The notes beneath the pieces are model-generated. The model saw only the letters and a list, made by a program, of their open reading frames with translations, had not been told where the DNA came from and did not search any database. The translations under genes were made by a program, and so were the position numbers. From the IMG/VR virus record IMGVR_UViG_2548876944_000012: a stretch of 4,054 nt of DNA; one strand, written 5' to 3'. This DNA comes from a virus (Duplodnaviria > Heunggongvirae > Uroviricota > Caudoviricetes). This document shows positions 2,071 to 3,858 of the stretch, piece by piece. Positions within the stretch are counted from its first letter, which is position 1. Each line of letters starts with the position of its first letter.

Positions 2071-2604
2071 ATGAACACCAAAATCAAATACGGCCTGTCG
2101 GCTGCCGTTCTGGCGCTGATTGCCGCTGGTGCGCCTGCGCCTGATATTCTCGACCAGTTTCTGGATGAAAAGGAAGGTAACCACACCACGGCATACCGTG
2201 ATGGTGCGGGGATCTGGACCATCTGCCGTGGTGCCATCATGGTGGATGGTAAACCTGTTGTTCCAGGCATGAAGTTGTCGAAGGCAAAATGCGCTCAGGT
2301 TAACGCCATTGAGCGTAATAAGGCGCTGGCATGGGTGGAGAAAAACATCAAAGTGCCATTGACCGAACCACAGAAAGCGGGGATTGCGTCATTCTGTCCG
2401 TACAACATTGGCCCCGGTAAGTGTTTCCCGTCGACGTTTTATAAACGAATTAATGCAGGCGATCGCAGGGGGGCGTGTGAGGCGATTCGCTGGTGGATTA
2501 AGGACGGTGGCAGAGACTGCCGTATTCGCTCAAACAACTGTTACGGTCAGGTATCCCGTCGCGACCAGGAGAGTGCGCTGGCGTGCTGGGGAATTGACAG
2601 ATAA
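2071..2604 (+). CDS. R: SAR endolysin (lysozyme, T4-lysozyme-like fold), 177 aa
   Basis: The translation has a weakly hydrophobic Gly/Ala-rich N-terminal signal-anchor-release segment (YGLSAAVLALIAAGAPAP). Glu35, Asp44 and Thr50 (EGNHTTAYRDGAGIWT) sit at the positions of the phage 21 R21 / T4 lysozyme catalytic triad. Overall it resembles the lysozymes of 933W-type phages and E. coli cryptic prophages, as recalled from memory. There is a 42-nt gap after the upstream ORF and no strong SD. Confidence 0.9.
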   Translation: MNTKIKYGLSAAVLALIAAGAPAPDILDQFLDEKEGNHTTAYRDGAGIWTICRGAIMVDGKPVVPGMKLSKAKCAQVNAIERNKALAWVEKNIKVPLTEPQKAGIASFCPYNIGPGKCFPSTFYKRINAGDRRGACEAIRWWIKDGGRDCRIRSNNCYGQVSRRDQESALACWGIDR

Positions 2605-2694
2605 GCAGAATATTTTGCTGAAAAATGCGGTTTGCTCACACGGACGGATAACACGAAATCCTGCGAACTGACAAAAACTAAGTGAATAAAAGTA

Positions 2695-2736
2695 AAAACC
2701 CCGTTTGTTGGCTGCAAGCGGGGTTTTGTGTTTCCT
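2695..2736. terminator. Bidirectional rho-independent terminator in the R-Rz gap
   Basis: AAAACCCCG (2695-2703) pairs with CGGGGTTTT (2719-2727), 9 bp. On the + strand it is followed by TTTTGTGTTT; on the - strand by TTTTTACTTTTATT. Confidence 0.5.
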
Positions 2737-2763
2737 GACTCTGGAAAAGTCAAAGGAGAAAGT

Positions 2764-2901
2764 GTGTTTGATTTTAGCAAACTGATTCGGGAGATTCGAG
2801 TGATGGCTGAAAAATTATCCACCTGGAAGTTCATTCTTATCTGGCTGGTGTTTGTGATTATGGCCTCCGGTTATTTCATCGGTCAGATACGCTGGTGGTG
2901 A
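2764..2901 (+). CDS. Small hydrophobic single-TM peptide (45 aa from GTG 2764, or 32 aa from ATG 2803), translationally coupled to Rz
   Basis: AGGAG at 2754-2758 sits 5 nt before GTG 2764; an in-frame ATG is at 2803. Translation ends ...MAEKLSTWKFILIWLVFVIMASGYFIGQIRWW. Stop TGA at 2899-2901 is 1 nt before the Rz ATG at 2903. Too short to appear in the ORF track. Coding status unproven. Confidence 0.3.
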   Translation: MFDFSKLIREIRVMAEKLSTWKFILIWLVFVIMASGYFIGQIRWW

Positions 2902-2902
2902 A

Positions 2903-3370
2903 ATGAACCGCGTACTGTGCGTGGTCATCATTGCCCTGCTGGTGGCCTGTGGTGCGCTTAGTCTGGGGCTGAATCATTACCGTGATAACGCCATAACCTA
3001 CAAAGAGCAGCGCGATAAAAAAGTCAGTGAGCTGGAGCAGGCAAATGCAACCATTACTGATATGCAGCAGCGCCAGCGTGATGTTGCTGCACTTGATGCC
3101 AGATACTCGAGGGAATTAGCCGATGCGAGAGCTGAAAATGAAACTCTTCGCGCTGACGTTGCCGCTGGTCGTAAGCGCCTGCGGATCAACGCCACCTGTC
3201 CAGGCTCCGTGCGTGAAGCCCCCACCACCTCCGGCGTGGATAATGCAACCGGCCCCCAACTGGCAGACACCGTTACACGGGATTATTTCACCCTCAGAGA
3301 GCGGCTGATGACGATGCACAAGCAACTGGAAGGGGCACAGGACTATATCCGCACTCAGTGCCTGAAATAA
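2903..3370 (+). CDS. Rz: i-spanin Rz (inner-membrane spanin), 155 aa
   Basis: N-terminal TM segment followed by NHYRDNAITYKEQRDK...RDVAALDA...AENETLRADVAAGRKRLRI...DYFTLRERLMTMHKQLEG, which is near-colinear with lambda Rz as recalled. It contains the embedded +1-frame Rz1. Confidence 0.9.
   Translation: MNRVLCVVIIALLVACGALSLGLNHYRDNAITYKEQRDKKVSELEQANATITDMQQRQRDVAALDARYSRELADARAENETLRADVAAGRKRLRINATCPGSVREAPTTSGVDNATGPQLADTVTRDYFTLRERLMTMHKQLEGAQDYIRTQCLK
3123..3308 (+). CDS. Rz1: o-spanin Rz1 (outer-membrane lipoprotein), 61 aa, embedded in Rz in the +1 frame
   Basis: MRELKMKLFALTLPLVVSACGSTPPVQAPCVKPPPPPAWIMQPAPNWQTPLHGIISPSESG: signal peptide with lipobox VSAC (Cys20), a penta-proline stretch, and a PPPPPAWIMQP...QTPL...GIISPSE core shared with lambda Rz1 as recalled. 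Lies wholly inside Rz in another frame. ATG at 3138 is an alternative start. Confidence 0.85.
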   Translation: MRELKMKLFALTLPLVVSACGSTPPVQAPCVKPPPPPAWIMQPAPNWQTPLHGIISPSESG

Positions 3371-3720
3371 GTTTTGTTGATGCGCCGTATCGTCGCTGTA
3401 TTCCCTCATTAACAGAGACCGCAGCCCGACAGGGAGACTCCTCTGCGCGAGTGTGCGGGGATAATCAAAAACGATACACACCGGGGTTTACCGCGTTAAC
3501 GGAGCGCGGCGTTGTCCCCTCATAGTCGCCTGTCCGGTGCGATGGTGGAAGAAGTCGGATGTTTATCACTATTAATTGATGACACAGAAATGGATTCATT
3601 GAATTTCAGCACGTTTTTGTATTCGTGTTATTGAACATCTGTTTATTTTACTTTTAACATATTGATAATAAAAAGAGCTGTAAATCTTTAGATGAGTCGA
3701 TTTTGTCCGGGGAAGTTCAA

Positions 3721-3858
3721 ATGGATTTTATGCTGACGGTTTCTGGTGTGGTTATCCTGTCCATTGCTTATACTGCAGATAAATATGGCTGCCATTTGTT
3801 ATCACGTATTGGCGCTTATTGTTCGTTGATGCTGATTTTCTCGTCGCTTTTTTTTTGA
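3721..3858 (+). CDS. Speculative 45-codon hydrophobic peptide ORF in the AT-rich region downstream of Rz
   Basis: Manual translation gives MDFMLTVSGVVILSIAYTADKYGCHLLSRIGAYCSLMLIFSSLFF. GGGGAAG at 3709-3715 precedes the ATG, and the ORF ends in a T9 run (3848-3856). It sits in a roughly 300-bp AT-rich stretch with promoter-like hexamers. Not in the ORF track (too short); no homology recognised. Confidence 0.2.
   Translation: MDFMLTVSGVVILSIAYTADKYGCHLLSRIGAYCSLMLIFSSLFF

Follow-up and report, generated by a model that had tools for sequence, protein, structure and literature searches.

The window, that is, the whole 4,054-nt stretch of DNA analyzed here, corresponds to the lysis region of an H-19B/phage 21-type lambdoid prophage. 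Its features are as follows.

828-1034: holin gene (PF04971).
1039-2028: 329-aa ORF of the DUF1327/YdfR family.
2071..2604, + strand: R, lysozyme-family endolysin of 177 aa (PF00959, E 2.6e-24; phrog_7; "lysozyme" in PGAP), bordering the R-Rz gap on the left.
2605..2688, + strand: conserved, non-coding spacer after R (GAATATTT..CTGAAAAATG..GGATAACAC), outside the mobile cassette.
2689..2901, + strand: cassette consisting of a hairpin leader and a 45-codon ORF; the exact extent of the match in phage Rac-SA53.
2695..2727, + strand: terminator-like hairpin with a GC core (2699-2707/2715-2723), a loop (2708-2714), and an A/U extension on both sides.
2754..2758, + strand: AGGAG, Shine-Dalgarno (SD) sequence of the small ORF, 5 nt before GTG 2764, at a position conserved in relatives.
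2764..2901, + strand: 45-codon gene with a GTG start (MFDFSKLIREIRVMAEKLSTWKFILIWLVFVIMASGYFIGQIRWW), identified by the phrog_6632 match, dN/dS, and the shared open frame.
2894..2901, + strand: GGTGGTGA, the last two Trp codons and the stop codon, the likely SD sequence of Rz.
2903..3370, + strand: Rz, inner-membrane spanin subunit (i-spanin; PF03245, E 2.2e-47; phrog_13).
3123..3308, + strand: Rz1, outer-membrane lipoprotein spanin subunit, embedded in Rz in the +1 frame (from the ORF list).

The ORF equivalent to Rz1 is labelled PF06085 or Rz1 in relatives. The record of phage H-19B describes R as "similar to bacteriophage 21 R protein", and the N-terminus of R is hydrophobic; from these two observations, R can be read as a putative signal-arrest-release (SAR) endolysin of the phage 21 type. 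A consensus scan gave other terminator-like hairpins in the same late operon, such as that at 747-773 just 5' of the holin gene, and found no promoter-like site on the + strand anywhere in the window.

The end of R (2604) and the start of Rz (2903) are separated by a gap of 298 nt (2605-2902), in agreement with the approximately 300 bp given in an earlier, sequence-only reading of this DNA. The homologues of R and Rz in K-12 Qin and DLP12 instead overlap by 4 nt (GTGA), with no intervening sequence, and the gap is therefore an insertion relative to the Qin/DLP12 layout. The same reading took the R-Rz junction to be tolerant of insertions. This view is borne out by the ant-type Stx phages BP-4795 and Sakai Sp15, in which ant and a different small membrane-peptide ORF occupy the junction, and by PhiR12_4 and 569R3, in which two to four other small membrane-peptide ORFs are found there. 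PhiR12_4 has the leader in common until 3 nt upstream of the start codon, after which it encodes a different peptide. In E. fergusonii, the first small ORF ends with KWW-TGA-T-ATG, followed by 'ATGTCCCGGGTA' and then by the hairpin of the phrog_6632 cassette. The segment 'ATGTCCCGGGTA' reads MSRV and resembles the start of Rz. Since this remnant of an Rz start is left of the hairpin, the cassette appears to have been inserted at this joint.

The first part of the gap, the spacer 2605..2688, shows 87-92% identity to the ant-type Stx phages, where other content comes after it, and is also present in Salmonella lysis cassettes with other endolysins. It is missing from the copies of the cassette outside lysis regions. 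The region from the R stop codon to the hairpin is moderately structured (z = -2.6); a small RNA derived from the 3'-UTR between them was considered and set aside, as no promoter was found.

The junction is widespread. A 391-nt query (2560-2950) covering the 3' end of R, the gap, and the 5' end of Rz is 100% identical in many E. coli chromosomes, and 871 of the 5,426 complete E. coli genomes contain at least 80% of it. The identity is 97-99% in H-19B, CP-1639, and many Stx1a, Stx2a, and Stx2c converting phages. The element is thus common, and it lies directly 5' of the spanin genes in an operon that releases phage and Shiga toxin, while in the model phage H-19B the ORF at this place is not annotated.

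For the small ORF's ribosome-binding site, AGGAG 2754-2758, the duplex predicted with the 3' end of 16S rRNA has an energy of -8.7 kcal/mol, compared with a background of -4.3 +/- 2.7 kcal/mol in the window. The ORF had been given a length of 32-45 codons. The longer form, with 45 codons from GTG 2764, stands, while ATG 2803 (32 aa) is ruled out as the main start: residues 1-13, which precede it, are kept as protein in all relatives, and the start is at the matching position, including in the relatives that start with ATG. Two other candidate ORFs were rejected. The in-frame GTG 2728 (57 aa) sits in the terminator tail without a ribosome-binding site, and a minus-strand 95-aa ORF (2547-2834), which is annotated in CP-1639, has no comparable minus-strand open frame in relatives.

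The phrog_6632 profile matches residues 1-45 on its positions 1-45 (E 1.2e-29). PGAP annotates the ORF in some genomes as WP_000459345.1 (45 aa, "hypothetical protein"), and the same protein in CP-1639 is CAH23245.1, whereas the H-19B record and most of the top RefSeq rows are without annotation for it. Relatives of 45 aa in the protein databases come from E. coli, E. albertii, E. fergusonii (82% identity), and Salmonella (67%), and a further one was found in Citrobacter braakii by genome scan. Comparison of the window with four diverged copies (Salmonella, E. fergusonii, Citrobacter, and phage Rac-SA53) gave dN/dS values of 0.06-0.18 at dS of 0.6-1.9, with third-position changes dominating; against the Rac-SA53 ORF, the first, second, and third codon positions differ at 5, 0, and 12 sites, respectively. 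The frame of the small ORF is the sole one open in all five compared sequences. The codon-level conservation that the sequence-only reading had proposed to look for is accordingly present, and these substitution patterns identify the small ORF as a real protein-coding gene under strong purifying selection.

The hydrophobic segment of the peptide covers residues 24-42 (mean Kyte-Doolittle hydropathy, 2.1). The N-terminal part has a net charge of +2, and RWW alone follows the hydrophobic segment. The AlphaFold model is a single continuous helix at residues 4-44 with a pLDDT of 86. The product is thus predicted to be a single-pass membrane peptide formed by one long helix, as the presence of one hydrophobic helix had been read from the sequence. 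Pfam, NCBIfam, and PADLOC gave no match for the peptide or its sister peptides, and the holin and antiholin families in Pfam, PHROG-lysis, and NCBIfam gave none for the peptide. Searches of solved structures returned chance matches to membrane helices only, and no paper on the element came up in literature searches with the peptide strings, the accession numbers, and the topic. In the leaders of relatives, a small stem containing the SD sequence recurs; the SD-sequestering stem in the window itself is not significant (z = -1.15), and the hint comes from the relatives only.

In the hairpin upstream of the ORF, nine pairs form the core, and AAAA 2695-2698 pairs with TTTT 2724-2727 to extend the stem. 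The T-run covers 2724-2733 (tail, TTTTGTGTTT) and the A-run 2685-2698; the sequence upstream of the hairpin, AATAAAAGTAAAAA, is a T-run when read on the minus strand. The fold is -23.1 kcal/mol on the + strand (z = -4.0, with 0 of 200 shuffles as stable) and -16.6 kcal/mol on the minus strand (z = -2.9). A hairpin with U-tracts on both strands, as described before, is therefore present. The consensus scan found it terminator-like on the + strand, and its scores under R1, a covariance model of the hairpin, are 70.4 bits for the + strand and 27.6 bits for the minus strand.

A comparable hairpin is located 36-44 nt 5' of the ORF start in 13 divergent loci, which are all the diverged loci inspected and come from lysis, tail, baseplate, head, and toxin-antitoxin-island contexts. 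The outer CCCCG/CGGGG pairs are invariant in these loci, the inner stems vary yet stay complementary, and the T-run is conserved. RNAalifold detected both-sided changes at three pairs. The hairpin is beyond chance, and its structure has been kept in evolution. With its GC-rich stem-loop followed by a T-run, it has the sequence features by which an intrinsic terminator is predicted, and it is most likely one. The single Rfam match (rimP-leader, minus strand) is below threshold (29.9 bits against a gathering value of 47) and was discarded as reflecting the terminator shape. Inspection by eye for a promoter in the hairpin loop or leader, a sigma-54 site, or an integron attC-like site gave nothing that fits.

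At the other end of the cassette, the stop codon of the ORF (TGA 2899-2901) is separated by 1 nt from the ATG of Rz (2903-2905), exactly as had been pointed out. The last codons, UGG-UGG-UGA, read GGUGGUGA, whose predicted duplex with the 3' end of 16S rRNA (-10.8 kcal/mol) is the strongest among the genes in the window (-8.7 for the small ORF and -2.3 for R). The stretch TGGTGGTGA in the ORF tail would hold the codons that form this ribosome-binding sequence. The spacing of stop, 1 nt, and ATG to a next ORF of at least 140 codons is found in 95 of 101 loci, a count dominated by 77 near-identical E. coli loci. The 95 loci include eight distinct spanin N-termini; the i-spanins belong to two unrelated families (PF03245 and DUF2514), and the endolysins that precede the cassette are of at least four types (R-type lysozyme, 162-aa lysozyme, GH19 enzyme, and 138-aa enzyme). 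Between the PF03245 and DUF2514 contexts, DNA similarity ends at the stop/start junction. Among cassettes ending with RWW or KWW, the next long ORF lies within 3 nt of the stop codon in 13 of 28, and within 30 nt in 8 more. RWW is also present in cassettes without a directly following gene (e.g., locus L110). With RWW retained in the absence of an adjacent downstream gene, the tail is not solely a ribosome-binding site.

The boundaries of the cassette are defined by phage Rac-SA53, which matches the window at 2689-2901 only (82% identity), after a baseplate gene in a baseplate operon. With the exception of the Rac-SA53 type, all close relatives (at least 67% identity) are directly 5' of an i-spanin gene. 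When 1.8 billion representative proteins were searched with a profile, 41 clusters at 50% identity were obtained; their members are all of 42-54 aa once upstream run-on is allowed for, share the N-terminal motif D-[FI]-S-K-L-I-R-E-[IL]-R-x-M, and extend from Escherichia to Pseudomonas phages. Elsewhere, the cassette is flanked by tail genes K and I (L113 and Pseudomonas phage YMC11/02/R656) or by Mu-type head genes (L120), and in L110 it has toxin-antitoxin genes on either side and a terminase gene downstream. The hairpin and the ORF thus move together as a single unit, a point absent from the sequence-only reading, and the hairpin is more than a terminator for R.

The leader is also found in front of other peptides. 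Additional copies of the hairpin found with R1 precede other small membrane-peptide ORFs, two in L110 and one in E. fergusonii; a copy in L113 lies between tail genes L and K, and that in PhiR12_4 precedes a phrog_1115 peptide. R1 gave no copy in the ant-type Stx phage loci (L009 and L102) and a weak match of 19 bits in K-12 Qin. Such small membrane peptides form tandem arrays in some phages.

A pattern for the hairpin only, AAAGCNAAANCCCCG-N12-18-CGGGGYTTTYT, was searched in IMG/VR and was found in at least 120 phage loci, where the number of chance matches estimated from its 22 fixed bases is well below one. Among the matches listed, an SD sequence and a 25-90-aa ORF with a hydrophobic segment are placed 26-41 nt after 83 of 128 hairpins, and the same rule applied to the opposite side of the hairpin gave 0 of 128. 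In 54 non-redundant cassettes, the start codon is GTG in 24, TTG in 13, and ATG in 17 (GTG or TTG, 37/54), and the C-terminus is RWW or KWW in 30. The peptide bodies differ between conserved cassette ends (the leader and CGnTGGTGGTGA). The bodies are of at least eight N-terminal types; several are in PHROGs, mostly without an assigned function, and several are in no library. One sister family, phrog_35629, is labelled "moron ... membrane protein". The genes 3' of the cassettes include those for baseplate hub gp41, gp53-like tail fibre, Mu F, DUF2213 scaffold protein, and DUF2514 i-spanin, besides two long ORFs (1,054 and 786 aa) resembling tail proteins. Judged by gene content, the host operons are late structural and lysis operons. 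Since relatives with the same leader precede baseplate, tail-fibre, head, and scaffold genes, the peptide does not appear to be specific to spanins.

We are moderately inclined to regard 2689-2901 as a promoterless passenger cassette that was inserted in the late (lysis) operon, splitting an ancestral overlapping R/Rz junction, and that has three working parts. The hairpin flanked by the A-run and the T-run would act, most likely, as an intrinsic terminator, in which case the peptide gene and Rz/Rz1 would be transcribed mainly by a polymerase that ignores terminators, i.e., the Q-modified one in a lambdoid late operon. A need of Rz/Rz1 for antiterminated read-through, as put forward in the sequence-only reading, would be reasonable in view of the established behaviour of lambdoid late operons. 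The second part would be a weakly initiated gene (GTG, AGGAG) for a 45-residue single-pass inner-membrane peptide. Its charged, amphipathic N-terminal 22 residues may face the cytoplasm, with only RWW beyond the membrane, and the weak start codons and the partly paired ribosome-binding site may hold the peptide scarce. The third part, the UGG-UGG-UGA tail, has the anatomy described above and could hand ribosomes straight to Rz, thereby restoring the coupling that was lost on splitting of the R/Rz overlap. Our best guess, made from genomic context, is that the peptide is made late and in small amounts and serves as an accessory factor in the inner membrane, modulating what happens to the envelope as infection ends; lysis itself probably does not require it.

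The peptide could alternatively be a dedicated lysis regulator that tunes the S21-type holin, the release of the membrane-tethered endolysin, or the Rz/Rz1 spanin, which would account for its place next to Rz in the lysis cassette. Its close relatives, apart from the Rac-SA53 type, are immediately followed by an i-spanin gene and preceded by at least four types of endolysin, which agrees with such a role, as do its small size and inner-membrane nature, shared with holins and antiholins, and the pile-up of other small membrane-peptide ORFs at the R-Rz junction. We consider a dedicated regulator unlikely, however, because the family with the same leader is also found among tail K/I, baseplate, head, and toxin-antitoxin genes, because Pfam and PHROGs contain no holin or antiholin family similar to the peptide, and because no gene intervenes between the R and Rz homologues encoded by Qin and DLP12. 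The suggestion in the sequence-only reading that the ORF might be just a leader for Rz is not sustained. A coupling leader is expected to stop within a few nt of the next start, as is the case here, with a ribosome-binding sequence in its last codons, but also to encode a peptide free to vary, and the dN/dS values are contrary to this. The N-terminal motif is kept from Escherichia to Pseudomonas phages, and the hairpin-ORF unit also occurs without a spanin gene or any tightly following gene. The selection and the predicted single-span helix together argue that the peptide is more than a leader, and an ORF that merely brings ribosomes to Rz, with a peptide lacking its own function, is extremely improbable. 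A module resembling type I toxin-antitoxin systems, with the peptide as a membrane toxin and the two-way hairpin terminating an antisense RNA that arises inside the ORF and covers the ribosome-binding site, is also quite unlikely. There is one minus-strand promoter-like site (2886->2857), but it scores 9/12, and its -10 (ATTATG on the + strand) is missing in the homologous ORFs compared for dN/dS. The peptide mRNA has no + strand promoter-like site, and the gap between hairpin and start is short. The minus-strand T-run of the hairpin is good, although R1 fits the + strand far better (70 vs 28 bits). PADLOC gave no matches, against which the small hydrophobic peptide, the weak start codon, the partly paired SD sequence, and the tandem peptide arrays in some phages can be set.

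The hairpin may not be mainly a terminator. It could be an element for stability or processing of the late mRNA, or a recombination end for cassette swaps, with transcription passing freely. All the sequence features of an intrinsic terminator are present with a conserved T-run, and other terminator-like hairpins such as that at 747-773 are found in this late operon; we therefore give this explanation a low probability. It is favored by the position of the hairpin before essential late genes in many phage types, and by the conservation of both cassette ends around differing peptide bodies, and by PhiR12_4, where the common leader ends 3 nt before the start of another peptide. For phages in which antitermination is not known, a true terminator ahead of the essential genes for head, tail, and baseplate would come at a cost, which suggests that the hairpin may be leaky or do something else.

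If the passenger-cassette reading is correct, such that the hairpin gates transcription and the tail couples translation, the supply of spanin would be wired differently from that in Qin and DLP12. The arrangement would also provide a repeatable design by which a passenger gene enters an essential operon without polar damage, and it points to dozens of small membrane peptides predicted to be made late in infection. A more tentative and, in our judgment, doubtful extension is that the gap element belongs to a large undescribed class of cassettes, which would have the hairpin leader, often a tail of (I/V)RWW and stop, and varied single-helix membrane peptides, and would fit in among late genes while leaving operon expression intact. 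The peptides could then be a diversifying inner-membrane arsenal used late in infection (e.g., for lysis, exclusion, or defence), and the conserved ends could permit swapping of the bodies.

Several known systems can be compared with this element. The type I toxins (Hok, Ldr, Ibs, and TisB class) and the small holins and antiholins are likewise short single-helix membrane peptides with restrained translation. The cassette differs from them in that no antisense RNA gene, own promoter, or family match was found for it, and in that it also occurs outside lysis cassettes. BP-4795 ORF50, Sakai ECs_5741 (phrog_4906), and phrog_1115 are at the same junction and have a similar size and one hydrophobic helix, but they belong to different sequence families. 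The phrog_4906 gene comes directly after ant without the hairpin leader (no R1 match in L009 and L102) and ends 7 nt before Rz. The start of Rz at or next to the stop codon of the preceding gene is reminiscent of the GTGA overlap in Qin and DLP12, whereas here the inserted peptide gene, not R, precedes Rz, the junction is UGA-N-AUG, and the ribosome-binding site is within the Trp-Trp-stop codons.

The nearest concept is the moron of lambdoid phages, described by Hendrix and colleagues as an extra gene that carries its own promoter and terminator and is inserted where related phages have two neighbouring late genes. The cassette resembles a moron in being a mobile extra small gene in a late operon, placed between genes that abut or overlap in related phages. 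Contrarily, no promoter-like site was found for the cassette, its terminator-like hairpin is upstream rather than downstream of the gene, and its 3' end, where the ORF abuts the start of Rz, would pass ribosomes to the next late gene. The entries phrog_6632, WP_000459345.1, and CAH23245.1 represent the same protein, and these catalogues record the ORF only, with nothing on the hairpin leader, the joint with Rz, or the mobility. The ORF is thus already catalogued (phrog_6632 and the "hypothetical protein" entries), and the upstream hairpin and the proposed ribosome hand-over tail are the element's own features beyond the moron.

The S–R junction, between the holin and endolysin genes, is a second site that tolerates insertions, since a 329-aa ORF sits there. 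It and three further features of the window are as follows.

747-773, + strand: terminator-like hairpin of 11 pairs with the tail TTTTGTTTTC, 55 nt upstream of the holin ATG at 828
1039-2028, + strand: the 329-aa ORF between the holin gene and R
2605-2688: conserved non-coding block of ~85 nt directly after R, GAATATTT..CTGAAAAATG..GGATAACAC
3721-3858, + strand: second 45-aa hydrophobic ORF (MDFMLTVSGVVILS...), in an AT-rich stretch downstream of Rz

Residues 1–100 of the 329-aa ORF correspond to DUF1327/YdfR, which is 103 aa long in K-12 Qin, and the remainder matches phrog_1085. This ORF is present as a pseudogene in strain 2013C-4465. R starts 42 nt downstream of the stop of the preceding ORF, and its Shine-Dalgarno match (2050-2073) is nearly absent, at −2.3 kcal/mol as compared with −6.6 to −10.8 kcal/mol for the neighboring genes.

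The position of the hairpin ahead of the holin ATG should be noted. A "hairpin then gene" layout is therefore repeated within this late operon, and in the window the holin hairpin is not of the type described by R1, the covariance model of the hairpin in the R–Rz cassette. The block after R is common to lysis cassettes of E. coli and Salmonella phages with differing endolysins and is also found in ant-type Stx phages; several copies contain an 8-codon mini-ORF ending in GG-stop. The hydrophobic ORF after Rz is annotated by PGAP as WP_000347012.1, and no match to it was found in PHROG, Pfam, or NCBIfam.

In some relatives, small membrane-peptide ORFs form a tandem array at the R–Rz junction, between two and four in number, as at the following loci.

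Phage 569R3 (locus L008), 612-1176: tandem small membrane-peptide ORFs
PhiR12_4 (locus L007), 2657-2985: tandem small membrane-peptide ORFs

Among these relatives, one tandem ORF is a chimera of the phrog_6632 N-terminus and a different C-terminus, and another, unannotated and 28 aa long, ends IRWW-TGA-T-ATG(Rz). In a further phage/prophage locus, L110, a direct repeat of ~700 bp lies at 2600-3700, interspersed with ParE, RelB/YafQ, and HicAB-type toxin-antitoxin genes. Each copy contains, in order, a good promoter-like site (TTTACA-17-TATCAT, 10/12), short terminator-like hairpins, and a peptide cassette headed by its hairpin. The segment running from promoter to terminator may represent a small-RNA gene.

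One compared locus comes from a phage whose reported host is Actinobacillus pleuropneumoniae.

L123, 2495-2632: locus of Actinobacillus phage vB_Apl-pPE4

Its gene order is identical to that in E. coli phage Rac-SA53, and the peptides of the two phages each match the 45-residue cassette peptide of the window at 86%. This agreement suggests either a very recent common origin or a mis-assigned host.
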